From Escherichia coli (GTDB lineage Bacteria > Pseudomonadota > Gammaproteobacteria > Enterobacterales > Enterobacteriaceae): DNA of 64,000 nucleotides. The notes below the pieces were generated by a model, which saw only the letters and a list, made by a program, of their open reading frames with translations, searched no databases and had not been told where the DNA came from. The position numbers were made by a program, and so were the translations under genes. Position 1 is the stretch's first letter; each line of letters opens with the position of its first letter. The stretch is from assembly GCF_024298765.1 (NCBI RefSeq), contig NZ_CP101210.1; one strand, given 5' to 3'. This document shows, one piece after another, positions 2,539-52,675 of the stretch.

Positions 2539-5354
2539 CAGGCAAACTTACGTTTTTCACCGTCACCGGCGACGTTGCTGACACAGCGGCCGCAGATTTC
2601 TGCGTGTTCCGCCACCTTGCCGACATCCTGGGTGTAGTGCCAGCAGCGTGGGCACTTCTCACCTTCGGCTTTACTCAACGCGACTTTCAGCCCTTTGAGT
2701 ACTTCGCTCTGCTGAGCATCAGCAGGTGCATCGTTATAGTCTGCAACGGTAGCGCCGGAGGTCAACAGGACAAATCGTAATTCATCGCCCAGCGCGGTCA
2801 GTTTCGCCGCCAGTTCCGGTTCTGCATACAAGGTTACTGCCGCTTCCAGCGAGCCACCCACTTTCTTATCGGCACGCGCTTGCTCAATGACTTTGTTCAC
2901 TTCGCCACGCACTTTCAACAGCTCGTCCCAGAACGCATCGTTCATCGCTTCACTGTCTGCCAGACCAAACAGGCCTTCGTACCACTCACCGGTAAAGACG
3001 TATTTTTCACGTTCGCCCGGCAGATAGCCCCACACTTCATCAGCGGTGAAGGAGAGGATTGGTGCCATCCAGCGCACCAGCGCTTCAGCGATGTGATACA
3101 GCGCAGTCTGGCAGCTACGACGCGCCACGCTGTCCGCTTTGGCGGTATACTGACGGTCTTTGATGATGTCGAGGTAGAAGGAACCCATCTCAACGGAGCA
3201 GAAGCGCATCAGACGCTGTACCACTTCGTGGAAATCGTATGCTTCGTACGCCTTGAGGATGTCTTCCTGTGCCGCTTTCGCACAACCTACGGCCCAGCGA
3301 TCCAGTACCACCATCTCTTCCGGTTTCACCATATCTTTTGCCGGATCAAAACCGTTCAGGTTTGCCAGCAGGAAGCGCGCGGTGTTACGGATACGACGAT
3401 AGCTGTCGGCAGCACGTTTCAGGATCTCGTCAGAAACGGCCATTTCGCCAGTGTAGTCGGTTGATGCCACCCACAGACGCAGAATATCCGCACCCAGTTT
3501 GTTCATCACATCCTGCGGCGAAACGGTGTTACCGATGGATTTAGACATCTTGCGACCCTGACCATCCACGGTAAAGCCGTGAGTCAGTACCTGACGATAT
3601 GGCGCTTTGCCCTTCATCGCGGTAGAGATCATCAGGGAAGACATGAACCAGCCACGGTGTTGGTCAGAACCTTCCAGATACATGTCCGCTGCGTGACCGG
3701 CAAATTCCGGACGCACATCAACAACGGAAGAGTGGGTAGATCCGGAGTCAAACCATACATCCAGCGTATCCGGTACTTTCACATACTGGTCAGCTTCGTC
3801 GCCGAGGATCTCTTTCGCATCGAGATCCCACCACGCCTGAATGCCGTCAACTTCAACGCGTTTTGCCACTTCTTCCATCAGTTCGAGAGTACGCGGATGC
3901 AGTTCTTCTGTGTCTTTGTGCACGAACAGTGACATCGGCACGCCCCAGGTACGCTGACGAGAGATACACCAGTCAGGACGGTTAGCAACCATCGACTCGA
4001 TACGCGCCTGGCCCCAGTCAGGGATCCACTGCACACCTTTGATCTCTTTCAGTGACTGCGCACGCAGACCTTTCTGATCCATGCTGACGAACCACTGCGG
4101 CGTCGCGCGGAAGATGATCGGCGTTTTGTGACGCCAGCAGCACGGATAGCTGTGCTGCATTTTCTCAACGTGCAGCAGCGCGCCTTTTTCCTGCAGCAGC
4201 GCAACGACGATGTCGTTCGCTTTGAAGACGTTCACGCCATCCAGCGTCGGGTAAGTGCCCGGCAGATAAGTGCCGTCCGGGCCAACCGGGTTAGCGGTTT
4301 CCAGACCATATTTTTGACCGATCACATAGTCGTCCGGACCGTGGCCTGGCGCGGTATGAACGGCACCGGTACCGGCATCCAGCGTAACGTGGTCGCCGAG
4401 AATTGCCGGAACATCGAAGTCCATAAACGGATGGGTAAAGCGCAACAGTTCCAGCTCGGCACCTTTCACCGTGCCAAGAATGGTGTAATCGCTAACGCCG
4501 ATACGCTGCATTACGCTTTCAACCAGATCTTTCGCGAGGATCACGGCCTGACCGTCGATTTGCACCAGCGCATAATCAAAATCAGGTGCAATGGAGATTG
4601 CGCGGTTAGCAGGCAGCGTCCACGGCGTGGTGGTCCAGATAACCAGCGAAATTGGGCCGTTAACATTGCTTACGCCAAATTTCGTTTTCAGCGCATCCTG
4701 ATCGACCGCCTGGAAAGCGACGTCGATGGACGGAGAAGTTTTGTCGTAATACTCAACTTCCGCTTCTGCCAGTGCAGAACGGCAGTCAACGCACCAGTGC
4801 ACCGGCTTCGCGCCTTTGTGCAGGTGACCGTTGCCGATGATTTTGCCCAGCGCGCGGATGATGTTGGCTTCAGTTTTGAAGTCCATGGTCAGGTACGGGT
4901 GCGACCAGTCGCCCAGCACGCCCAGACGGATAAAGTCTTTGCGCTGACCGTCAACCTGGGTCGCAGCGTATTCGCGGCACTTGGCGCGGAACTCAGCGGC
5001 GGTGAATTTCTCCCCCGGCTTACCGTATTCTTGCTCTACTTTCAGTTCGATTGGCAGACCATGACAGTCCCAGCCAGGCACATACGGCGAGTCATATCCA
5101 GAAAGCCCTTTGGACTTAATGATAATGTCTTTCAGAATCTTGTTAACCGAGTGACCAATATGAATGCTGCCATTCGCATAAGGAGGGCCATCATGCAGAA
5201 TGAAGGTTTTTTTGCCTTTTTTAGCTGCACGAATGATGCCGTACAGATCATCATCAGTCCAACGCGCCAGCATTCCCGGTTCGCGCTTGGCGAGATCGCC
5301 ACGCATCGGGAACCCTGTTTCCGGCAAATTCAGGGTTGATTTATAGTCACTCAT
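2538..5354 (-). CDS. ileS: isoleucyl-tRNA synthetase
   Basis: 938 aa ORF with class I aaRS signatures ([12 protein letters not shown]; KMSKS) and C-terminal zinc-binding cysteines. Confidence 0.97.
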
Positions 5355-5396
5355 CAGATTCTCGGTTCCGTATTTCGGTTTGATTACATAACAGGC

Positions 5397-6338
5397 TTAA
5401 GCCGGTTTTGTTAGCCCAAAAAATTCGCGGGCGGTTAATTCATCACGCGCAATCTGCGCTTTCAGTTCGTCCAGCGATGCAAATCGCTGCTCATTGCGTA
5501 TTTTTTTACGCAGCACTACTTGTATATGGCGACCATAAAGGTCCATTGCAACATCTAACAAATGCACTTCCAGTTGCTGGCGAATACCGGCAACCGTTGG
5601 GCGTGTTCCGATGTTTGCAACGCCGGGTAACGGCTTTTCGCCAAGGCCCAACACTTCTACCGCATAAACCCCTTTCACCGGGGAAACCTGACGGCGTAGC
5701 GGTACATTCGCCGTCGGGAAACCTATAGTGCGCCCTAATTCATCACCGTGGACTACACGCCCGGAGATAGCAAACGGGTGCCCCAGTAAACTTTCTGCCA
5801 GAGCCAGATTGTCATCCGCAAGCGCCTGACGCACGGCGGTGCTGCTGATACGCACGCCACCTTCGCAAAAAGTTTGCGTGCTGGTGATATCGAAGCCGTA
5901 TTCCATGCCCGCTTTCTGTAATAACAAGAAATCGCCTTCACGACCAGCGCCAAAGCGGAAATCGTCACCTACGGCAAGAAATTTTACCCGCAAGTGCTTC
6001 ACCAGAAGATCACTGATGAAGTTTTGCGCGGTTAACGCCGCAAAACGCCTGTCAAAACGCACGCACAGCACGTAATCAACACCACACTCTGCAAGATAAC
6101 GCAGTTTTTCCCGCAGCCGGGTGAGCCGTGCCGGGGCTTTATCAGTAGCAAACAGTTCCAGTGGTTGAGGTTCAAAAAGCATCACCATCACCGGTAAGTT
6201 GCGCTTGCGCCCTTCTTCCTGCAAGCCCTGTAACAGCGCGCGATGACCGCGATGCACGCCGTCGAAATTACCAATAGTCAGCACACACCCTTCTTGCGGG
6301 GCCTGGCTGAGATTATGTATGCCGCGTATCAGCTTCAT
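5397..6338 (-). CDS. ribF: bifunctional riboflavin kinase / FMN adenylyltransferase
   Basis: 313 aa ORF MKLIRGIHNLSQAPQEGCVLTIGNFDGVHRGH... Confidence 0.95.
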   Translation of the reverse strand: MKLIRGIHNLSQAPQEGCVLTIGNFDGVHRGHRALLQGLQEEGRKRNLPVMVMLFEPQPLELFATDKAPARLTRLREKLRYLAECGVDYVLCVRFDRRFAALTAQNFISDLLVKHLRVKFLAVGDDFRFGAGREGDFLLLQKAGMEYGFDITSTQTFCEGGVRISSTAVRQALADDNLALAESLLGHPFAISGRVVHGDELGRTIGFPTANVPLRRQVSPVKGVYAVEVLGLGEKPLPGVANIGTRPTVAGIRQQLEVHLLDVAMDLYGRHIQVVLRKKIRNEQRFASLDELKAQIARDELTAREFFGLTKPA

Positions 6339-6564: not shown

Positions 6565-6645
6565 TAACGGCGCTTATTTGCACAAATCCATTGACAAAAG
6601 AAGGCTAAAAGGGCATATTCCTCGGCCTTTGAATTGTCCATATAG

Positions 6646-6930
<285 letters not shown>

Positions 6931-6953
6931 TTGCCTGTTGTTGTCAGCTTTGT

Positions 6954-6982
6954 AAAAAAACCCGCTCTGGCGGGTTTTTTTA
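6954..6982 (+). terminator. rho-independent terminator of rpsT
   Basis: aaaaaaacccgctctggcgggttttttt: GC stem-loop followed by T-run immediately after the rpsT stop. Confidence 0.65.
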
Positions 6983-7025
6983 TATCCATCTGCAGGCCAA
7001 AATTCGGCCTGCAAAGTACAAATGT

Positions 7026-7931
7026 TTATTTTGAAGCTGGAGTAAACAGCGCAGAATAGTCTGTATTGCAGATACGCTGTACTGCAGGGTGCTGAATCAT
7101 CCTTTCGGCAAAAATCGCGTGGTACTCTTCCATCACGTTCTCAACACGGCCTATCTCCACAACCGAGTCATCGTTATAGAAATCATTAGCGTAAAGCGAA
7201 GGTGCAACGAAAATAGCGTTATGCGTCGCCCCAAAGGCTTTCATCAACGCAGCATCATCAAACTCACCCAAAATTTCGACGTTCAAGCCCTGGGAGTTAA
7301 ACCAGTTTAATAGCTTACGCCCCAACATTGAGCGACGCCCCGGAATAAGTAAACGACGCTCTTCAAGACAGGCAGGAAACGGCTTTTCTGGTAGTGGGTT
7401 AGTGCACCAGAAACTGACACCACATTCGCCAATTTTCATGGAAAACAGCCCTTCCTGCTGAGTGGAATCGATCGGACAGTCAGAGATGATCATATCCAGT
7501 TTATGCTGACTCAACTGCTCTAAAAGCATCTCGTGCGTCGATTCGAAACAGCGTAGATGGATCTGCTCGTCTTCCACAACTGCGGCATCCAGAACACTGC
7601 TGACCAGACGTTTGGAAAGTGCATCTGCCACACCAACATCAAACAATAAGTTGGATTCTTTGCGATAGTTCACGATATCCAGCATTTCCTGGCTTAAGGT
7701 GAACATTTTATCGGCATAGCGATAGACCAGCTCTCCCAGCTCGCTGGGCTCGAGGCCACGTCCCTTGCGCTTAAATAATTTGCCTTGCAGGCGCTCTTCC
7801 AGCGCCCGAATCTGTCCGGTAATGGTTTGTGGTGTTAAATAAAGCGCCTCCGCTGCGCCAACCACGGAACCTTCTTTATAGACATGCCAGAAGTAATACA
7901 AGTGGTTGTAATTGATATGAGACATGCTCAT
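7026..7931 (-). CDS. nhaR: LysR-family transcriptional activator NhaR
   Basis: ORF 7026..7949; known N-terminus [30 protein letters not shown] at an internal ATG; 301 aa. Confidence 0.93.
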
Positions 7932-7990
7932 TTCTCTCCCTGATAACAATGAAAAGGGAGCCGTTTATGGCTCCCCGGTAAACCGTCCTG

Positions 7991-9157: not shown

Positions 9158-9654
9158 TTTTTATTTCTCTTTCAGGTGAATAGATCGTTTTTACTATCTT
9201 ACCCCGCACGAATCATCGTTAAAATCAGATTATAGTGTAGGAATAATTCGCTTTTTACGAGGCATTGAAAGATTTGCGTCATCAGTGATGATATGAGTTT
9301 TTGACGGCTGTAAGCGCTGACGTGTGACCCTAAGCCCTGATAATCATAGCTTAAGGTAAGGATTTCTGAGGGATTAATTGGGAAAAGTAATAATTAATTT
9401 GTTGTCAGTCGGCGATGTTTGTTAGGCCAATACTTCAAAAATAATCCAGTTTGTCGTCAATAATTGCGATGAAGAGATAAATTAAAGTTAAATAATTAAA
9501 TCATTAAAAAATTACGCCATAAAAATGCGAGGCGTCTTCAGGATTAGAATCGATAAAACAGAATGGGTTAAAGAGAGCGATATAATAGCGGCGGGTGCTT
9601 GAGGCTGTCTGTCTCAGGCATTAGCTGAACGGCAGATAGAGAAAAGCCCCGAGT

Positions 9655-9720
9655 GATATTTTACTATCAACCCGAGGCCCCCTATATGCAGAACACATGT
9701 AGAGTGCCTCTTACTGACCG
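9655..9720 (-). ncRNA. sokC: putative Sok-type antisense RNA (sokC) overlapping the mokC start region
   Basis: Inferred only from the architecture of hok/sok loci; promoter and ends not located in the sequence. Confidence 0.25.
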
Positions 9721-9895
9721 TAAGGTCAAGGAGAAGAGAGCAATGAAGCAGCATAAGGCGATGATTGTCGCCCTGATCGTCATCTGTATCACCGCCGTAG
9801 TAGCGGCGCTGGTAACGAGAAAAGACCTCTGTGAGGTTCACATCCGAACTGGCCAGACGGAGGTTGCTGTTTTCACGGCTTACGAATCCGAGTAA
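9686..9895 (+). CDS. mokC: Mok-type regulatory reading frame overlapping hokC
   Basis: In-frame extension upstream of hokC reading MQNTCRVPLTDRKVKEKRAMKQHKAM... Confidence 0.55.
   Translation: MQNTCRVPLTDRKVKEKRAMKQHKAMIVALIVICITAVVAALVTRKDLCEVHIRTGQTEVAVFTAYESE
9743..9895 (+). CDS. hokC: Hok/Gef-family type I toxin (small membrane peptide)
   Basis: 50 aa MKQHKAMIVALIVICITAVVAALVTRKDLCEVHIRTGQTEVAVFTAYESE, canonical Hok family sequence. Confidence 0.8.
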   Translation: MKQHKAMIVALIVICITAVVAALVTRKDLCEVHIRTGQTEVAVFTAYESE

Positions 9896-9998
9896 GAGCA
9901 ACGGCGGGGAGTGATTCCCGCCACTTTTCAGGTGCTCGCATATCTTCAACGCACCCTGGTTTTACCCAGGCCTGCCCACGGGCAGGCTTTTGGGGAGG

Positions 9999-11129
9999 TT
10001 AGCGGGTCAGGTCGTCAAAAAACTTCTTCACACCATCAAAGAAGCTCTTTGAGCGCGGGCTGTTGTGCTCGCCGGTTGGGCCACCGAAGCTTTCTTGCAG
10101 CTCTTGCAGCAGCTGTTTCTGCTTCTCGTTCAGGCCTACCGGTGTTTCGACGACAACGCGGCACAGCAAATCACCCTGTGCGCCACCGCGGACAGACTTG
10201 ACGCCTTTACCGCGCATACGGAACAGCTTACCGGTCTGGGTTTCGCCAGGCACTTTCAGTTTGACGCGACCATCAAGGGTCGGTACTTCGATTTCGCCAC
10301 CCAGCGCCGCCATAGCGAAGTTGATCGGGACTTCGCAATACAGGTTGTTACCTTCACGCTCGAAAATCGGGTGCTGTTTAACCTGAACCTGAACGTACAG
10401 ATCGCCTGCCGGTGCGCCATGCTCGCCCGCTTCACCTTCGCCCGCAAGACGGATGCGGTCTCCAGTGTCCACCCCTGCCGGGATTTTAACGGACAGCGTT
10501 TTGCTGCGCTCAACACGACCATGACCATGACATTTGTTGCACGGATCTTTGATCAGCGTACCGCGGCCCTGACAGTGTGGACAGGTCTGCTGCACGGCAA
10601 AGAAACCCTGGCGCATCTGCACCTGACCAGAACCATGACAGGTCGGACAGGTCTGCGGCTGTGTACCTGGTTTTGCACCGCTACCGTGGCAAACGTCACA
10701 CTCTTCCAGAGTCGGAATGCGGATCTCTTTGGTCACGCCACGTACAGCTTCTTCGAGGGTGAGCTCCATGTTATAGCGTAAATCAGCACCGCGCGCCGCA
10801 CGTTGACGACCACGTCCGCCGCCAAAAATATCGCCGAAAACGTCACCAAAAATATCGCTGAAGTCTGCGCCGCCGCCAAAACCGCCGCCGCCCATGCCGC
10901 CTTGATCAAACGCAGCATGACCATACTGATCGTATGCCGCACGTTTTTGCGAGTCGGTCAGAACTTCATAAGCTTCCTTGATCTCTTTAAATTTCGCCTC
11001 GGCCTCTTTGTCACCCTGGTTACGGTCCGGGTGGTATTTCATGGCCAGGCGTTTGTAGGCCTTTTTGATTTCACGCTCTTCCGCTGTTTTGGAAACGCCT
11101 AAAATCTCGTAATAATCTTGCTTAGCCAT
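9999..11129 (-). CDS. dnaJ: chaperone DnaJ (Hsp40)
   Basis: ORF 9999..11159; known start [14 protein letters not shown] at an internal ATG; J-domain HPD motif, G/F-rich region, four CxxCxGxG zinc-finger repeats. Confidence 0.97.
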
Positions 11130-15377: not shown

Positions 15378-15406
15378 GATCCCCCCGCTCGGGGGGATTT
15401 TTTTAT
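15378..15406. terminator. bidirectional rho-independent terminator between satP and mog
   Basis: gatccccccgctcggggggatttttttatt: perfect G/C stem with a T-run on one side and A/T on the other. Confidence 0.65.
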
Positions 15407-15990
15407 TCGCTAACGTCGCGTCTTGCACTCTTCGGTCTGAATGCTGCAACCACTTCCGGTGCCGTTTCAATGTATGGCCCTTCCAGCAACTGAATGCAGT
15501 ACGGTACGCTGGCAAAAATACCATGCACCACAACGTTACCCGCAGCGTCCTTCACGCCTTCCAGCGTCTCTTTAATCGACTTCGGCTGACCGGGTAAGTT
15601 AAGGATCAGCGCCTGTTTGCGAATCACGCCCACCTGACGCGAAAGGATCGCAGTTGGTACAAAATGCAGGCTGATCTGGCGCATCTGTTCACCAAAGCCA
15701 GGCATCTCGCGGTCCGCTACTGCCAGCGTCGCATCGGGCGTTACGTCACGACGCGCCGGGCCAGTTCCGCCCGTGGTGAGCACCAGATGGCAACTCATTT
15801 CATCCACCAGCTCACACAACGTTTGCTCGATGATCGCCTGCTCATCGGGGATTAAGCGGGTTTCCAGTTCAAACGGCGTGGTTAGCGCCGATGTCAGCCA
15901 TTCTTCCAGCGCAGGGATGCCTTTATCCTGATAAACGCCGCTGGATGCGCGATCAGAGATGGAAACTAAGCCAATACGTAAAGTATTCAT
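15403..15990 (-). CDS. mog: molybdopterin adenylyltransferase Mog
   Basis: ORF 15403..15993; MNTLRIGLVSISDRASSGVY... from the second Met; 195 aa. Confidence 0.93.
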   Translation of the reverse strand: MNTLRIGLVSISDRASSGVYQDKGIPALEEWLTSALTTPFELETRLIPDEQAIIEQTLCELVDEMSCHLVLTTGGTGPARRDVTPDATLAVADREMPGFGEQMRQISLHFVPTAILSRQVGVIRKQALILNLPGQPKSIKETLEGVKDAAGNVVVHGIFASVPYCIQLLEGPYIETAPEVVAAFRPKSARRDVSE

Positions 15991-16104
15991 CAAGATTTTT
16001 CCGTTTAAACAGTCTCGTTAAACAGAATGATACACTGCGAAGGGAGTGACAGACAGGCTTCAGAAGAGGTAGCGTGACCGACTTCCCGGTCACGCTAAGA
16101 ATGA

Positions 16105-17058
16105 TTACAGCAGATCGCCGATCATTTTTTCCAGTTTTTCCTGGTCAACAGCAAACTTACGGATACCTTCCGCCAGTTTATCTACTGCCATTGGATCCTG
16201 GTTATGCTGCCACAGGAACTCGGACTCAGTGATACGCGCCGGACGCGCTTTCACTTCGCCGGTGTAAGACAGTTTACGTTCGATAGCCCCTTCGCTCTCA
16301 GCCAGCTCTTTCAGCAGTGCCGGTGCGATGGTCAGACGGTCGCAGCCTGCCAGTTCCAGAATTTCGCCGATGTTACGGAAGCTTGCGCCCATAACCACGG
16401 TTTCATAACCGTGCTCTTTGTAGTACTGGTAGATTTCAGATACAGAAACCACGCCTGGATCTTCTGCCGGAGCGTACTCTTTCTTATCGGTATTCGCTTT
16501 GTACCAGTCAAGAATACGGCCAACAAACGGCGAGATCAGGAACACGCCCGCTTCCGCACAAGCACGAGCCTGAGCGAAGGAGAACAGCAGGGTCAGGTTA
16601 CAGTTGATGCCTTCTTTTTCCAGCTGTTCTGCAGCACGGATACCCTGCCAGGTAGAAGCCAGTTTGATCAGAATACGATCGTTGCTAATCCCTGCATCGT
16701 TGTAGAGTTTGATCAGGCGTTTTGCTTTCGCAATTGACGCTTCGGTGTCATAGGAAAGACGCGCATCAACTTCAGTTGAGATACGGCCCGGAACCAGTTT
16801 CAGGATTTCCAGACCAATATTTACTGCCAGTTTGTCGGTCGCGTCCACGATCTGCTGCGCGCGATCGTTGCTCTGCTGTTTCGCCCAGGCGACAGCATCA
16901 TCAATCAACTTACGGTATTCCGGAATCTGCGCTGCGTTAAGAATGAGAGAAGGGTTGGTTGTGGCATCCTGCGGTTGATACAGCTTCATTGCCGCGATGT
17001 CCCCAGTGTCGGCCACTACGGTGGTGTACTGACGAAGGGAGGTCAATTTGTCCGTCAT
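16105..17058 (-). CDS. talB: transaldolase B
   Basis: ORF 16105..17121; known start [38 protein letters not shown] at an internal ATG; 317 aa. Confidence 0.96.
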
Positions 17059-18836: not shown

Positions 18837-19613
18837 ATGCTGATTCTTATTTCACCTGCGAAAACGCTCGATTACCAAAGCCCGTTGCCCACCACGCGCT
18901 ATACGCTGCCGGAGCTGTTAGACAATTCCCAGCAGTTGATCCATGAAGCGCGGAAACTGACGCCTCCGCAGATTAGCACGCTGATGCGCATCAGCGACAA
19001 ACTGGCGGGTATCAACGCCGCTCGCTTTCATGACTGGCAGCCAGATTTCACGCCAGAGAATGCCCGACAAGCGATTCTGGCATTTAAAGGTGATGTCTAT
19101 ACTGGCTTGCAGGCCGAAACCTTCAGCGAAGACGATTTCGATTTTGCCCAACAGCATTTGCGAATGCTTTCCGGCTTGTATGGCGTACTGCGCCCGCTCG
19201 ATTTAATGCAGCCTTATCGTCTGGAAATGGGGATCCGTCTTGAGAATGCCCGAGGGAAAGATCTGTATCAATTCTGGGGAGATATCATCACCAACAAGCT
19301 GAACGAGGCGCTCGCAGCACAAGGCGATAATGTGGTGATTAATCTGGCGTCAGATGAGTATTTTAAATCGGTGAAGCCGAAGAAATTGAATGCCGAGATT
19401 ATCAAGCCGGTGTTCCTCGATGAGAAGAACGGCAAATTTAAGATCATCAGCTTCTACGCTAAGAAAGCACGCGGTCTGATGAGTCGTTTCATTATTGAAA
19501 ATCGGCTGACCAAACCAGAGCAACTGACTGGTTTTAATAGCGAAGGTTACTTCTTTGATGAAGCTTCCTCCAGCAACGGCGAACTGGTGTTTAAACGCTA
19601 CGAGCAGCGTTAA
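18837..19613 (+). CDS. yaaA: peroxide stress resistance protein YaaA (DUF328)
   Basis: 258 aa [28 protein letters not shown]... Confidence 0.92.
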
Positions 19614-19625
19614 GTTTGTAGCCAA

Positions 19626-19760
19626 TGCCGGATGCGGCGTGAACGCCTTATCCGGCCTACAAAAGCATGCAGATTCAATATATTGCAGAATTAACGTAGG
19701 CCTGATAAGACGCGCCAGCGTCGCATCAGGCGCTGAATGCCGGATTGTTACCCGGCATTT
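19626..19760. repeat. REP elements in inverted orientation (BIME-like) between yaaA and yaaX
   Basis: gccggatgcggcgtgaacgccttatccggcctac and the inverted copy gtaggcctgataagacgcgccagcgtcgcatcaggc. Confidence 0.8.
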
Positions 19761-19765
19761 GTCAT

Positions 19766-20062
19766 TTAGCGGTGATGTTTGCCTGGACCATGACCGCCGT
19801 GATGATCATGAGGAGCTTTCTTATGGTGGCGCGGCGGTGGCGGCGGTCCGTGTGGGTGCCAGCGATTGCCTCGCCATTCATAATGTTGTTTCCACCAGCC
19901 GTGGTCGCGCCAGTGACCGCCATCCCAGTAATAGCCACGATTATCACGATCGCCTATCTGTAATTTTACTGACGGGACTAGCGTAATTTCCGCAGCCTGC
20001 GCTGCCATGGGAGCGACCAGAACCAGGGAAAGTGCGAGTACGATAGATTGCATCTTTTTCAC
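19766..20062 (-). CDS. yaaX: DUF2502 family secreted protein YaaX with His/Pro/Gly-rich C-terminal tail
   Basis: 98 aa [23 protein letters not shown] (signal peptide) ... [30 protein letters not shown]. Confidence 0.85.
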
Positions 20063-20275
20063 AGGTTACTCCTTTTATCATTGCCCGTTATGGGTCGATA
20101 TCCGGAGATTACGCGATGAGAACGGCAGTTGTTATTCTCCGCAATCCTAATCTCTAAGTTACCGCATTTATTGAGAATTTCTCCTTTTTCCCTGTCGTTT
20201 TTCTCCATATTTTCTTCATAAAAAAGCCGGGCTGCATAAAAGCAAACCCGGCCTGATTGAGATAATGAATAGACG

Positions 20276-21562
20276 TTACTGATGATTCATCATCAATTTA
20301 CGCAACGCAGCAAAATCGGCGGGCAGGTTATGCGAAAGCAAGGGTAAATCAGCACGTTCTGCCAGCTCTTTTGGCAGATCCAACGTTTCACCGAGAATCG
20401 CTTCCACGCTCTCTTTAAATTTCGCCGGATGCGCGGTGCCGAGGAACAAGCCATATTCGCCTGGATTCAACTGGTCACGCAGCGCACGATAAGCTACGGC
20501 AGCGTGCGGCTCCGAGGTATAGCCCAGTTCTTTTAACTCACGCATTGTCTGTTGCGTGGTTTCATCATCCACGGCTGCATACCCCAGCTCTTTCAGTTGC
20601 CAGATTTTGCGGCGGAACAACTCTTCCACACGCGGCCAGTTGTTTGGCTGGCTAACATCCATCGCATTGGATAACGTCGCCTGAGTCGCTTTGGGTGACC
20701 ACTGACCGTCGTGCAGGAAACGTGGCACGGTATCGTTCACGTTGGTCGCAGCAATAAAACGTTTCACCGGCAGACCGAGTGACTTCGCCAGCAGACCCGC
20801 CGTCAAATCGCCGAAGTTTCCGCTTGGCACCGAGACAACCAGCTGGTTGCGCGCTTCCTGCGGCAGCTGCGCAACAGCTTCAAAGTAGTAGCAAATCTGC
20901 GCCAGCAAACGGCTGATGTTAATCGAGTTAGCTGAGTTTAGCCCCAGCGCCACTTTCAGTTCTTCATCATCAAACGCCTGCTTCACCAGCGCCTGACAGG
21001 CATCGAAATCGCCGTCGATGGCAACAGTTTCAATATTGCCGCCCAATGTACAGAACAGTTTTTCTTGCAGTGGACTGATTTTGCCTCGTGGATAGAGGAT
21101 AACCACTTTCACATTCGGCAAACCGTAGAAAGCATGAGCCACTGCCGCTCCGGTATCACCGGAGGTCGCGGTCAGAATGGTCACTGGCTTATCGCCCGCA
21201 ATATGGGTCAGCATTTGTGCCATAAAGCGACCGCCGAAATCTTTAAATGCCAGCGTTGGCCCGTGAAACAACTCCAGACAACCGACATCGCTTTCAACAT
21301 TGGCGACCGGAGCCGGGAAGGCAAACGCCGCGCGTACGCGCTCTTCCAGGATTTCCTGCGGGATTTCATCACCAATAAACGCCGAGAGGATCTTCGCACT
21401 GCGGGTGACAAAATCCAGCTTCAGCATCTCATCAATTTCAGTCAGGCTGAATTCCGGCAGGTCGTGCGGGAAAAACAGCCCCTGATTTTTGCCCAACCCC
21501 TGGGTTACGGCTTGCGCAAAGCTGACCTGCTCATTGTGATCTTTCAGATTGTAGAGTTTCAT
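20276..21562 (-). CDS. thrC: threonine synthase
   Basis: 428 aa MKLYNLKDHNEQVSFAQAVTQGLGKNQGLFFPHDLPEF... Confidence 0.97.
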   Translation of the reverse strand: MKLYNLKDHNEQVSFAQAVTQGLGKNQGLFFPHDLPEFSLTEIDEMLKLDFVTRSAKILSAFIGDEIPQEILEERVRAAFAFPAPVANVESDVGCLELFHGPTLAFKDFGGRFMAQMLTHIAGDKPVTILTATSGDTGAAVAHAFYGLPNVKVVILYPRGKISPLQEKLFCTLGGNIETVAIDGDFDACQALVKQAFDDEELKVALGLNSANSINISRLLAQICYYFEAVAQLPQEARNQLVVSVPSGNFGDLTAGLLAKSLGLPVKRFIAATNVNDTVPRFLHDGQWSPKATQATLSNAMDVSQPNNWPRVEELFRRKIWQLKELGYAAVDDETTQQTMRELKELGYTSEPHAAVAYRALRDQLNPGEYGLFLGTAHPAKFKESVEAILGETLDLPKELAERADLPLLSHNLPADFAALRKLMMNHQ

Positions 21563-25318: not shown

Positions 25319-26005
25319 TTATTTGGTGATATTTTTTTCAATATCATGCAGCAAACGGTGCAACATTGCCGTGTCTCGTTGCTCTAAAAGCCCCAGGCGT
25401 TGTTGTAACCAGTCGACCAGTTTTATGTCATCTGCCACTGCCAGAGTCGTCAGCAATACCATGGCTCGTTTGCGTAAAGCTTGCAGTTGATGTTGGTCTG
25501 CCGTTGTGTCACTTTTCGCCGGTTGTTGTATTAATGTTGCTAATTGATAGCAATAGACCATCACCGCCTGCCCCAGATTGAGCGAAGGATAATCCGCCAC
25601 CATCGGCACACCAGTAAGAACGTCAGCCAACGCTAACTCTTCGTTAGTCAGCCCGGAATCTTCGCGACCAAACACCAGAGCGGCATGGCTCATCCATGAA
25701 GATTTTTCCTCTAACAGCGGCACCAGTTCTACTGGCGTAGCGTAGTAATGATATTTCGCCCGACTGCGCGCAGTGGTGGCAACAGTGAAATCGACATCGT
25801 GTAACGATTCAGCTAGTGTCTTGAAAACTTTAATATTATCAATAATATCACCAGATCCATGTGCGACCCAACGGGCGGCTGGCTCCAGGTGTGCCTGACT
25901 ATCAACAATCCGCAGTTCGCTAAAACCCATCGTTTTCATTGCCCGCGCCGCTGCCCCAATATTTTCTGCTCTGGCGGGTGCGACCAGAATAATCGTTATA
26001 CGCAT
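25319..26005 (-). CDS. lasT: SpoU-family tRNA/rRNA methyltransferase LasT (YjtD)
   Basis: ORF 25319..26026; likely start MRITIILVAPARAENIGAAARAMKTMGF; 228 aa. Confidence 0.88.
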   Translation of the reverse strand: MRITIILVAPARAENIGAAARAMKTMGFSELRIVDSQAHLEPAARWVAHGSGDIIDNIKVFKTLAESLHDVDFTVATTARSRAKYHYYATPVELVPLLEEKSSWMSHAALVFGREDSGLTNEELALADVLTGVPMVADYPSLNLGQAVMVYCYQLATLIQQPAKSDTTADQHQLQALRKRAMVLLTTLAVADDIKLVDWLQQRLGLLEQRDTAMLHRLLHDIEKNITK

Positions 26006-33188: not shown

Positions 33189-34051
<863 letters not shown>

Positions 34052-36171: not shown

Positions 36172-36300
36172 TTATACTCTAAATAATTCGAGTTGCAGGA
36201 AGGCGATAAGTGAGTGAGTCCCCAGGAGCTTACAGAAGTAAGTGACTGGGGTGAGCGAGCGTAAGCGCAGCACATGCAACTTGAAGTATGACGAGTATAC
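36172..36300. repeat. ERIC (IRU) intergenic repeat element
   Basis: gtgagtccccaggagcttacagaagtaagtgactggggtgagcgagcg...gcaacttgaagtatgacgagtat matches the ERIC consensus core. Confidence 0.75.
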
Positions 36301-38076: not shown

Positions 38077-38108
38077 GCCGGATGCGGCGCGCCAGCATCG
38101 CATCCGGT
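38077..38108. terminator. hairpin terminator downstream of ettA (REP-like)
   Basis: gccggatgcggcgcgccagcatcgcatccggt inverted repeat 11 nt after the ettA stop. Confidence 0.45.
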
Positions 38109-38121
38109 ATTAGTTAAATGA

Positions 38122-38406
38122 TTAATGGGAGGCAAGTTCCCGGAAAAAGGCAGGATTTTCTTTAATTGTGGCAAGTACTTTTGCAGCCAATCCCGTAGGA
38201 TTTCTTCGCTTCGATTCCCAGCTTTTAATGGTATCCACACTGGTTCCCAGAGCTTTTGCCATCTCACTTTGCGAAACGTTGAGTTGCTCACGAATAGCTT
38301 TAACATCCGCAATTTCGTAGCGGGTCACCCGTGCAGGTTCTTTTAAACCTTGTTTAATCTCGACAGCCTCTTCCAGAGAGGTTTTCAACTCATCAAAAAA
38401 ACTCAT
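38122..38406 (-). CDS. HigA-2-like antitoxin with C-terminal XRE-type HTH
   Basis: 94 aa MSFFDELKTSLEEAVEIKQGL...IREQLNVSQSEMAKALGTSVDTIKSWESKRRNPTGLAAKVLATI; XRE-type HTH with the W-E-x-x-R-R-x-P turn seen in HigA/MqsA-type antitoxins; start 1 nt after the toxin stop. Confidence 0.75.
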   Translation of the reverse strand: MSFFDELKTSLEEAVEIKQGLKEPARVTRYEIADVKAIREQLNVSQSEMAKALGTSVDTIKSWESKRRNPTGLAAKVLATIKENPAFFRELASH

Positions 38407-38407
38407 T

Positions 38408-38740
38408 TTATATCTCGCCTTTGAGCAGTTTCGTCAACTTCTTTAGTTGAGCTTTTTCCGTATCTGTCAGACTATCTTTGGCATTTTTCGGATAGGCCAT
38501 AATCAAATAAATAATCTCTTCCGTCGCCAGAAAGTAAATTATTCTGACACTGCCACTTTTTCCCTGTGAACCCGCAACCATTCGGACTTTACGCAATCCA
38601 CCAGTCTGCTGAATGAGATCACCTTTATCGGGAGTTCCGATGAGTTCTTTTTGCAATTCCTTTAATTCATCATCGGTTGCAATCTGCTTGATCTGACGCG
38701 TAAACATTGGCGTCTCTATAAATATTATCGCCTTACCCAT
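38408..38740 (-). CDS. HigB-2-like toxin (RelE/ParE superfamily)
   Basis: ORF 38408..38818; likely start MGKAIIFIETPMFTRQIK preceded by GGGAGGGG RBS (110 aa); conserved core LIQQTGGLRKVR...GSVRIIYF...IIYLIMAYPKNAKDSLTDTEKAQLKKL resembles Vibrio cholerae HigB-2 as recalled from memory. Confidence 0.75.
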   Translation of the reverse strand: MGKAIIFIETPMFTRQIKQIATDDELKELQKELIGTPDKGDLIQQTGGLRKVRMVAGSQGKSGSVRIIYFLATEEIIYLIMAYPKNAKDSLTDTEKAQLKKLTKLLKGEI

Positions 38741-38757
38741 TACCCCTCCCTGGCAGG

Positions 38758-38768
38758 TACATTGTACA
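38758..38768. promoter_or_regulatory. GTACA-N-TGTAC inverted repeat upstream of the toxin gene; candidate operator
   Basis: Palindrome gtacattgtac about 20 nt upstream of the toxin ATG, with a further GTACA copy near 38786. Confidence 0.35.
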
Positions 38769-38831
38769 CCAAAATGGAGTGCTAAGTACACTTTTGAATC
38801 AGTAATCCCACTCAACATCTTATAAAGATGA

Positions 38832-43261: not shown

Positions 43262-44278
43262 ATGTCCACATTACGCCTGCTCATCTCTGACTCTTACGAC
43301 CCGTGGTTTAACCTGGCGGTGGAGGAGTGTATTTTTCGCCAGATGCCCGCCACGCAGCGCGTTCTGTTTCTCTGGCGCAATGCCGACACGGTAGTGATTG
43401 GTCGCGCGCAGAACCCGTGGAAAGAGTGTAATACCCGGCGGATGGAAGAAGATAACGTCCGCCTGGCGCGGCGCAGTAGCGGTGGCGGCGCGGTGTTCCA
43501 CGATCTCGGCAATACCTGCTTTACCTTTATGGCTGGCAAGCCGGAGTACGATAAAACCATCTCCACGTCGATTGTGCTCAATGCTCTGAACGCGCTCGGC
43601 GTCAGCGCCGAAGCGTCCGGACGTAACGATCTGGTGGTGAAAACCGCCGAAGGCGACCGCAAAGTCTCAGGCTCAGCCTATCGCGAAACCAAAGATCGCG
43701 GCTTCCATCACGGCACCTTGCTACTCAATGCCGACCTTAGCCGCCTGGCAAACTATCTCAATCCGGATAAAAAGAAACTGGCGGCGAAAGGCATTACCTC
43801 AGTGCGTTCCCGTGTGACCAATCTGACCGAATTGCTGCCGGGGATCACCCATGAGCAGATTTGCGAGGCCATAACCGAGGCCTTTTTCGCCCATTATGGC
43901 GAGCGCGTGGAAGCGGAAATCATCTCCCCGGACAAAACGCCAGACTTGCCAAACTTCGCCGAAACCTTTGCCCGCCAGAGTAGCTGGGAATGGAACTTCG
44001 GTCAGGCTCCGGCATTCTCGCATCTGCTGGATGAACGCTTTACCTGGGGCGGCGTGGAACTGCATTTCGACGTTGAAAAAGGCCATATCACCCGCGCCCA
44101 GGTGTTTACCGACAGCCTCAACCCCGCGCCGCTGGAAGCCCTCGCCGGGCGACTGCAAGGCTGTCTGTACCGCGCGGATATGCTGCAACAGGAGTGCGAA
44201 GCGCTGCTGGTTGACTTCCCGGAACAGGAAAAAGAGCTACGGGAGTTGTCAGCGTGGATGGCAGGGGCGGTAAGGTAA
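43262..44278 (+). CDS. lplA: lipoate-protein ligase A
   Basis: 338 aa [57 protein letters not shown]... Confidence 0.96.
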
Positions 44279-44309
44279 CTCGCTGATTAAAATATCCAGG
44301 GAAGGAAAT

Positions 44310-44573
44310 ATGATCGATCTGGAAAACCAGGAACGGGAGATTATCAATTTAATGTTCAGCCAGGGTATATCCTGGCTAACCGCCGTGCGTATCAGGCATA
44401 AATTATCGCTTGCTGAAGTAAGTAAAATGTTAGGTATCTCCATTAATTCTCTAAAACAGATCGAAAAGACGGAACGGCTTAGTTCAAACATCAAAAGCAA
44501 AATGGCAGGAATTTATGGTTGTCCACCAGAGTTGCTGATATGCCCTTCCTGGATGACGGCTGAACATAAATGA
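44310..44573 (+). CDS. small HTH (XRE-like) DNA-binding protein, uncharacterised
   Basis: 87 aa MIDLENQEREIINLMFSQGISWLTAVRIRHKLSLAEVSKMLGISINSLKQIEKTERLSS...; AGGAA RBS about 7 nt upstream of the ATG; HTH-like LSLAEVSKMLGISINSLKQIE. Confidence 0.6.
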   Translation: MIDLENQEREIINLMFSQGISWLTAVRIRHKLSLAEVSKMLGISINSLKQIEKTERLSSNIKSKMAGIYGCPPELLICPSWMTAEHK

Positions 44574-51683: not shown

Positions 51684-51900
51684 CCGGATGTGGCCTACGG
51701 ATCGGCACAGACCTGTAGGCATGATAAGACGCGTCAAGCGTCGCATCAGGCATTGTGCGCCAGCTGCCGGATGCGGCGTGAACGCCTTATCCGGCCTACG
51801 GTTCGGCACAGACTTGTAGGCATGATAAGACGCGTCAGCGTCGCATCAGGCATTGTGCGCCAACGGCCGGATGCGGCGTAAACGCCTTGTCCGGCCTACG
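51684..51900. repeat. BIME: three REP copies separated by two copies of a roughly 65-bp spacer unit
   Basis: Repeated gccggatg(c/t)ggc...cctacgg(a/t)tcggcacagac(c/t)tgtaggcatgataagacgcgtca...gcgtcgcatcaggcattgtgcgcca units. Confidence 0.85.
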
Positions 51901-52675
51901 GCACGTTAAACAACGTATACGTGTTATTAAGCAACACTTCGGCAATTTCATCTTCTGGTTCCGGGCGTAACTCGCAAAGCACGGCAAACACCCGCGCGGC
52001 CTGTTCCGGGCGATTAGGCTGCCCCTGAAAACCGTTGAGCGGCATATCCGGCGCGTCGGTTTCCAGCAACAACGATGCCAGCGGTAATTTTGCGATGACA
52101 TCGCGGGTTTTACTGGCGCGTGGATAGGTGATAGTACCGCCTACGCCGATTTTGTAGCCCAGCAGTACAAACCGTTCGGCCTGTTGCAGGCTGCCGGAAA
52201 AACCGTGAACCACGCCAGTGCGTGGCAAATCGTGGCGTTTAAGATGCATCGCCAGTTTGTCGTGTGTGCGCCGTGAATGCAGGATCACCGGCAGATCGTA
52301 GCGTTTCGCCAGTTTCAGTTGTTCGTCGAGTAACCACTGCTGCCTCTCAAATTGCGGATCGTCGCCGAAGAGATCCAGACCGATCTCCCCCACCGCCACC
52401 ACCTTCGCCGGACGCCTTTCCAGCGCCTGCTGTAGCTGATCAAGAGACACATCGCTATGTTTTTTCAACATACCAGGATGCAAGCCCAATGCGGCATACA
52501 GCGGTTGATATTTTTCCGCTAACGCCTGCACGCGGGCAAAATTTTCCGCCTCTGTCGCCGGAACAATGATCTTGCCTACGCCCGCTTGTGCCGCGCGTTG
52601 CAGGCTGGCCTCTTCATCGCCACTAAACGGCGGAAAATCAAAATGGCAGTGGGTGTCGATAAAACGGCAAATCAA
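51896..52675 (-). CDS. yjjV: TatD-family metal-dependent hydrolase YjjV
   Basis: 259 aa MICRFIDTHCHFDFPPFSGDEEASLQRAAQAGVGKIIVPA..., TatD HxH motif. Confidence 0.9.
   Translation of the reverse strand: MICRFIDTHCHFDFPPFSGDEEASLQRAAQAGVGKIIVPATEAENFARVQALAEKYQPLYAALGLHPGMLKKHSDVSLDQLQQALERRPAKVVAVGEIGLDLFGDDPQFERQQWLLDEQLKLAKRYDLPVILHSRRTHDKLAMHLKRHDLPRTGVVHGFSGSLQQAERFVLLGYKIGVGGTITYPRASKTRDVIAKLPLASLLLETDAPDMPLNGFQGQPNRPEQAARVFAVLCELRPEPEDEIAEVLLNNTYTLFNVP

Follow-up and report, generated by a model that had tools for sequence, protein, structure and literature searches.

A compact rpsT-nhaR junction with a divergent nhaR block in a non-K-12 Escherichia coli, at the place where K-12 carries IS1A

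The chromosome of E. coli K-12 MG1655 carries IS1A between nhaR and rpsT (19796-20563, 768 bp) and IS186A between dnaJ and mokC/hokC (15387-16731, 1,345 bp). A stretch of 64,000 nucleotides of another E. coli chromosome (the window) contains neither element, raising the question of whether both places are simply vacant targets in a strain poor in insertion sequences (ISs) or whether the junction between rpsT and nhaR has a history of its own. A sequence-only reading of the window had named the two K-12 positions, and the MG1655 annotation showed that it was right, in agreement with published accounts (PMC12428005, PMC3562002). It had gone on to propose a non-K-12, IS-poor background with possible consequences for nhaAR read-through.

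The whole-window alignment to MG1655 that it had suggested was carried out with BLASTN. The window was colinear with MG1655 from 4,602,088 through the origin to 27,741, in the reverse of the K-12 orientation, and IS186A and IS1A were the only two ISs of the K-12 counterpart. The identity between both sequences was ~95-99%, which bore out the proposed non-K-12 source. The nearest complete genome, that of D10 (NZ_CP010157.1), differed from the window by 5 SNPs and one 38-bp indel, and strain 104 was 99.9% identical to it. Near-identical isolates (D10, strain 104 and O78:H4 APEC strains) came from dog, avian and human sources. The lineage of the window is putatively ST117/phylogroup G, a name that follows from O78:H4 APEC strains being ST117, and no MLST or Clermont marker lies within the 64-kb window. 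Annotated genes occupy 88% of the window (Table 1), which we regard as an ordinary piece of a non-K-12 E. coli chromosome related to D10 and strain 104; this forms part of an overall explanation, given below, that we hold with high confidence.

Table 1. Positions of the genes and sequence features discussed in the text, numbered from the first nucleotide of the window.
Feature	Position	Strand	Basis or remarks
rihC-ispH-fkpB-lspA-ileS-ribF-yaaY	first genes, before rpsT	-	annotation of D10 and strain 104
rpsT (30S ribosomal protein S20), 87 aa	6667-6930	+	ORF; WP_001274021.1 in strain 104, D10 and ATCC 11775
Convergent rpsT-nhaR intergenic spacer, 95 bp	6931-7025		rpsT stop ends at 6930; nhaR stop at 7026-7028 (-)
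Hairpin 1, predicted bidirectional intrinsic terminator common to rpsT and nhaR	6954-6981		A7-CCCGC-TCTG-GCGGG-T7; fold
Divergent mosaic block, ~617 bp	6984 to ~7600		spans hairpin 2 within 42 bp of spacer and the part of nhaR that encodes the effector domain
Hairpin 2, GC-rich stem-loop	~6988-7016		fold; ~10 nt beyond the nhaR stop codon
nhaR (LysR-type activator of nhaA), 301 aa, intact	7026-7931	-	Pfam; WP_000062878.1
nhaA	7991-9157	-	annotation
hokC/mokC-sokC type I toxin-antitoxin locus, 3' end uninterrupted	9593-9895	+	Rfam, annotation
mokC/hokC CDS	9743-9895	+	annotation
Unoccupied IS186A target, hairpin GGCGGGGAGTGATTCCCGCC just 3' of hokC	9903-9922		overlap of K-12 alignment blocks
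dnaJ, dnaK, thr operon, arcA, cre; yjjP at the window end	after hokC		annotation
NadS/HTH_3 antitoxin-like gene	38122-38406	-	Pfam HTH_3, annotation
RelE/ParE-family toxin gene	38408-38740	-	Pfam RelE, annotation
87-aa HTH_3/Sigma70_r4-like ORF	44310-44573 (region 44278-44564)	+	Pfam; between lplA and deoD

Several differences were found along the window away from the two IS sites. The ispH-rihC intergenic region (449-508) carries 38 bp more than D10 and strain 104, inserted at ~468-505. The insertion repeats the start region of rihC in inverted and the terminator hairpin in direct orientation, which yields the long perfect palindrome CATGTTTTCTCCATAAAAAATGCCGG-TAACAAGA-CCGGCATTTTTTATGGAGAAAACATG and looks like a hairpin template-switch event. 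The same variant was present in complete genomes beyond the D10-like matches listed (HNSQ2209, D97-1 and CH4799), showing that it is a real polymorphism. Against K-12, patches of low identity (87-93%) were seen at ~1-1000, 2000-2300 and 3700-4700 (rihC 86.8%, the lspA-fkpB spacer ~90% and parts of ileS 92-93%), the housekeeping genes being otherwise 97-99% identical; these patches are further mosaic segments. A toxin-antitoxin-like gene pair lies between ettA and nadR (38092-38831), where K-12 has only 282 bp, and between lplA and deoD the 87-aa ORF stands in place of the 1.3-kb hipH (yjjJ) gene for a HipA-family kinase toxin present in K-12 and ATCC 11775. Tandem REP-type elements at 51692-51901, with Rfam naRNA4 matches at 51718-51796 and 51819-51896, differ in copy number between the window and K-12 as well as between the window and ATCC 11775, and a related 88-bp copy was located in the lspA-fkpB spacer of K-12 (25709-25796). 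The 3' ends of yjjX and trpR overlap in the window (33710-33718) where K-12 has 158 bp extra between them, and the window has 123 bp more (36175-36297) between slt and ettA.

The statement that no transposase or IS occurs anywhere in the 64 kb agreed with the annotation of the relatives, with the sizes of the unannotated gaps and with BLASTN against the IS regions of K-12. The PGAP annotation of D10 and strain 104 contained no transposase or mobile element across the counterpart of the window, only housekeeping genes, small toxin-antitoxin genes and tRNAs. The largest unannotated gap (619 bp) is shorter than IS1 (768 bp in K-12), Pfam searches of the small accessory ORFs of the window gave HTH_3 and RelE only, with transposase domains absent, and a BLASTN comparison of K-12 1-30,000 and 4,598,000-4,641,652 with the window returned the syntenic blocks plus one REP-like match of 88 bp and no IS-derived match. 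An IS-poor background cannot be supported from 64 kb. The K-12 chromosome has about one IS per 100 kb, and a random stretch of 64 kb is free of them roughly half the time; the absence of ISs in a single stretch of this length is not statistically remarkable. IS1-like sequence was found in 5,293 of 5,426 complete E. coli genomes, at a median of 10 places per genome. The lack of IS1A and IS186A in wild E. coli is ordinary natural variation, expected and already known, and the lineage of the window would simply never have acquired these two insertions of the K-12 lineage.

That the window equals K-12 minus its ISs at both sites was true of IS186A, whose target is clean and empty, and untrue of IS1A, where the DNA of an island scar present in K-12 is absent. 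At the first of these sites the K-12 flanks of IS186A meet in the window, overlapping by 12 bp (9907-9918) inside the hairpin just 3' of hokC. This 12-bp sequence is present once in the window and is duplicated on either side of IS186A in K-12, showing that the window has a true empty target; the K-12-type dnaJ-IS186 junction was found in 672 of the 5,426 genomes. The sok family of Rfam (RF01794) matched 9593-9745 with 118.8 bits. The 3' element responsible for fold-back inhibition of hokC, which IS186 is thought to disrupt (PMC3562002), is uninterrupted in the window, and hokC/sokC thus retains here the 3' end that is interrupted in K-12. This effect on hokC is a better-documented consequence of the K-12 ISs in the region than nhaAR read-through.

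The second site was different. The junction beyond the rpsT terminator measures 1,151 bp in K-12 versus 52 bp in the window (6984-7035, comprising spacer and the end of nhaR), and 383 bp of the K-12 interval remain as non-IS sequence when IS1A is subtracted. These 383 bp matched E. coli O157:H7 at two points 6.5 kb apart, on either side of espX1 and a chaperone-usher fimbrial operon. The flanks of IS1A mapped to positions 9582 and 16089 of the O157 locus, and no target-site duplication was found around the K-12 element, indicating that IS1A marks the scar of an island deletion: it stands in place of ~6.5 kb of the espX1 and fimbrial island that is intact in O157:H7. Nothing in the window corresponds to the flanking K-12 segments (19611-19795 and 20564-20761), and the IS1A site was consequently rejected as a simple empty target, the remnant of the fimbrial island that forms those flanks being absent. 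What K-12 has between nhaR and rpsT is the scar of an IS1-associated deletion of the espX1/fimbrial island, and this interval therefore serves poorly as a reference for the locus. Another state was seen in E. coli BL21-RIPL (9814-10290 of its locus): after rpsT come a fragment of an espX1 pseudogene and 56 bp of an IS1 end, and the sequence then jumps to tRNA-Gly/queG, which points to a large rearrangement anchored at the rpsT-nhaR junction.

In the window, the spacer between rpsT and nhaR had been described as about 95 bp long and as containing only terminator hairpins. Its length is exactly 95 bp, and the rest of the description fits one of its two hairpins, the second having no U tract. Folding of the whole spacer gave two hairpins whichever strand was used (-38.4 and -36.9 kcal/mol; z = -5.5 and -6.0 versus shuffled sequences). 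Hairpin 1 (-19.4 kcal/mol, z = -5.5 versus shuffled sequence) has a 5-bp GC stem lengthened by A/U pairs, with T7 on the plus strand and T7 on the minus strand, and it reads as a predicted Rho-independent terminator, that is, a GC-rich stem-loop followed by a U tract. It is homologous to the rpsT terminator of K-12, and the homology with K-12 stops at 6983. A simple consensus terminator scan did not report it, probably as an artefact of the tool, since its A tract is paired with its T tract. Hairpin 2 (-18.7 kcal/mol, z = -5.0 versus shuffled sequence) has a stable stem with a U tract on neither strand and so does not qualify as an intrinsic terminator. No homologue of it was found in K-12, O157 or the 80 Enterobacteriaceae loci listed, and K-12 has a different, non-homologous hairpin at this position after nhaR. 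No Rfam family reached its gathering score in the spacer, and its sole ORF (42 aa) is spurious.

From this arrangement, the rpsT and nhaA-nhaR transcripts would converge on hairpin 1 as a shared bidirectional terminator that ends both of them, a use by rpsT and nhaR that is predicted from the sequence. Beyond the nhaR stop codon, the 3' untranslated region has hairpin 2 and then the putative terminator within ~75 nt in the window, versus a non-homologous hairpin, then island remnants and then IS1A in K-12. The rpsT terminator has been described as strong, conceivably blocking read-through from rpsT into the downstream IS1A (PMC12428005). Because this terminator is homologous and intact in K-12 and in the window, read-through from rpsT towards nhaR should be blocked in either case, and the presence or absence of IS1A should therefore not alter the antisense pressure on nhaR. 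The consequences for nhaAR read-through that had been suggested for the lack of IS1A are thus a matter of speculation.

The junction itself adjoins an unusual nhaR allele. The reading frame is uninterrupted, and its product has an HTH_1 domain (residues 9-67, 2.5e-17) and a LysR_substrate domain (residues 98-287, 6.9e-12) according to Pfam. The mosaic block, which covers roughly codons 110-301 (the last ~575 bp of the gene), was only 79.9% identical to K-12, versus 96.4% for the 5' part of nhaR. Dense mismatches start at 7035-7042, adjoining the unalignable 6984-7035, and end at 7599. Within the block 91 of 192 third codon positions differ from K-12 and only 15 residues are changed, all of them from residue 115 onward, showing that nhaR is intact and under purifying selection. 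The window residue corresponds to the non-Escherichia consensus at 8-10 of these 15 positions. Neighbour-joining trees of the block and of the 5' part of nhaR were discordant, with boundaries at 6983/6984 and ~7600: the 5' part grouped normally with Escherichia and the block lay on a long branch, placed with weak support as sister of the Escherichia clade. The sharp local divergence and the tree placement discordant with the flanks, taken together, suggest that the block is a recombinant allele.

Carriers of the ATCC 11775 type apart, the block was 76-81% identical to that of every taxon tested, Escherichia included (78.1% to E. albertii), a level at which synonymous sites are near saturation and the phylogenetic placement is imprecise. 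The K-12-type block, for comparison, gave 87% with E. albertii and with Escherichia sp. E1V33, 90% with a divergent E. coli representative and 97% with the B2 strain 4/4. No near-identical donor was found among the 80 species-representative loci listed (NhaR contig search, BLASTN), the best nucleotide match being 82%. The block was found at an identity of at least 99% in 556 of the 5,426 complete genomes, and the contiguous compact form of rpsT, spacer and nhaR was likewise found in 556, with only 3 extra places, so every copy of the divergent block goes with an empty spacer.

Some further observations concern nhaR. Its 5' part and the nhaA-nhaR spacer (7656-7983) show 19 mismatches in 328 bp (5.8%) with ATCC 11775, adjoining a 1.2-kb stretch identical to that strain; B2 strain 4/4 has the ATCC 11775 pattern, and the segment looks like a second recombination patch. 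In Escherichia sp. MOD1-EC7003, nhaR (5051-5953) has a third type of 3' block, which shares ~78% identity with the K-12 type and with that of the window and grouped with Kluyvera and Klebsiella by neighbour-joining while its 5' part was of a normal Escherichia type, suggesting that such replacements recur at the rpsT-nhaR junction. The 20%-diverged 3' half was missed by megablast in most genomes and can defeat nucleotide-based calls of orthologues. The nhaR gene has been reported 'absent' in Escherichia strains of environmental and animal origin (PMC3466228); we speculate that this might be allele divergence and not gene loss.

The junction between rpsT and nhaR is a variable hotspot for gene islands in E. 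coli, of which we found no relevant explicit description in the literature. Among the 5,426 complete genomes, in classes that overlap slightly and whose sum slightly exceeds the number of genomes, the espX1 and fimbrial island occurred in some form in 3,791 (1,193 near full length), as in O157:H7; a cassette encoding an MFS transporter and a GH31 glycosidase in 640, as in B2 strain 4/4 and ST131; the K-12-type IS1A junction in 562, comprising K-12 and its relatives; and the compact form of the window in 556 (~10%), including CFT073, UM146, NC101, E2348/69, ATCC 11775, 'Seattle 1946' and the D10-like strains. In every comparison the homology on the rpsT side stopped at 6983, where the terminator ends. 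The spacer measured ~48-210 bp in most of the 66 species loci that had rpsT inside the fetched sequence (drawn from the 80 nhaR loci listed, GTDB species representatives), among them those of Salmonella, Citrobacter, Enterobacter, Klebsiella, Kluyvera and Buttiauxella, so that a compact architecture is the norm in Enterobacteriaceae.

Taken as a whole, we are confident of an explanation in which the window is an ordinary non-K-12 stretch that never acquired the K-12 insertions, and has a compact junction at an island hotspot next to a recombined block. For the origin of that block, we propose homologous recombination with DNA of a donor that lay outside the Escherichia clade sampled, one crossover falling where the rpsT terminator ends and the second within nhaR. 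Such an import would have replaced the effector-binding domain of NhaR and removed any island present at the junction, and the imported block with its empty junction would then have spread within E. coli. We judge this import and spread to be about evenly balanced to slightly probable; the direction of the transfer and the foreign origin are what the phylogenetic position of the block most likely indicates, and an ancient, deeply diverged Escherichia allele is possible. A more specific version, which we put forward tentatively as somewhat less than evenly probable, is that an import from another genus swapped the effector domain of NhaR, erased an island and spread in ExPEC-associated lineages (CFT073-like B2 and avian O78:H4-like). 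Under this version, the block of MOD1-EC7003 suggests that the junction repeatedly loses islands through 'empty' alleles from other genera; if this is true, swaps of the NhaR effector domain might alter Na+/pH sensing, and the locus would be an example of island loss through allelic replacement.

Alternatively, the compact junction and the 3' block of nhaR could be the ancestral state of E. coli, vertically inherited, with the K-12-type block having arrived together with the islands. The compact spacer common across Enterobacteriaceae, the match of the window residues to the family consensus at most variable positions and the weak sister position of the block to the Escherichia clade are all consistent with it. 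Nevertheless, it is the distances of the K-12-type block that track the phylogeny of the genus, as expected from vertical descent, and this type is common to E. coli bearing two unrelated islands (that of O157 and, at 97%, that of strain 4/4). Moreover, the window and ATCC 11775 (B2) are 2-6% different in the flanks and 100% identical in the block, a pattern indicative of recent lateral spread and not of old vertical inheritance. We therefore consider an ancestral state to be unlikely.

Less probable still is the idea that both sites are merely empty IS targets of an IS-poor strain, in which the missing IS1 alters nhaAR read-through with respect to K-12. IS1A and IS186A are indeed both absent, the IS186A target is clean and the 64 kb are IS-free, but one window of this size has no power to show IS poverty, the fimbrial-island remnant that received IS1A in K-12 is lacking, the spacer and the 3' part of nhaR are a different, ~20% diverged allele, and the rpsT terminator is kept in both strains (PMC12428005). 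For IS1A this idea is already refuted. Finally, K-12 shows that IS1-associated deletion of an island does happen at this junction, but a deletion within the lineage (IS-mediated or illegitimate) followed by local divergence is effectively refuted, because neither island, nor any IS, has left a remnant in the window, and a mostly synonymous divergence of ~20% within ~600 bp with sharp boundaries cannot build up in place.

When the proposed import of a divergent block into an island hotspot is set beside the known forms of the locus, K-12 MG1655 has the same flanking genes in the same order, a homologous rpsT terminator and the IS186A target sequence; it differs in having IS186A, IS1A, the 383 bp of espX1/fimbrial-island remnants and an Escherichia-type 3' half of nhaR. 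In O157:H7 and most A/B1/E-type E. coli, the espX1 and fimbrial island is placed at the same point, directly after the rpsT terminator; this island (~6.9 kb) has one gene for a type III effector and four for fimbriae, none of which is in the window. The MFS and GH31 cassette occupies the same junction in ST131 and other B2 strains, the Citrobacter freundii group, Klebsiella spallanzanii and Escherichia sp. E1V33. The rpsT-side flank of B2 strain 4/4 is identical to the window up to 6983, but this form differs from it by the presence of the 3.8-kb cassette and of the Escherichia-type 3' half of nhaR.

Outside the genus, Salmonella arizonae/diarizonae, Citrobacter, Enterobacter, Klebsiella, Kluyvera and Buttiauxella resemble the window in having convergent nhaR and rpsT genes separated by a gene-free spacer of ~48-210 bp, and differ from it in the sequence of the block (76-81% nucleotide identity) and in that hairpin 2 was not found in them. 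The closest counterparts are in E. coli itself. ATCC 11775 is 100% identical to the window over 6600-7400, with the same 95-bp spacer, the same hairpins and the same NhaR (WP_000062878.1), although the surrounding chromosome is ~2-2.6% diverged and a sulfatase/OmpK insertion between nhaA and hokC is present there and not in the window. The B2 references as a group (CFT073, UM146, NC101, E2348/69, ATCC 11775 and 'Seattle 1946') are 99.4-100% identical to the window over 6984-7630, and the genomes of CFT073, E2348/69 and the type strain made the sequence of the compact junction publicly available long ago.
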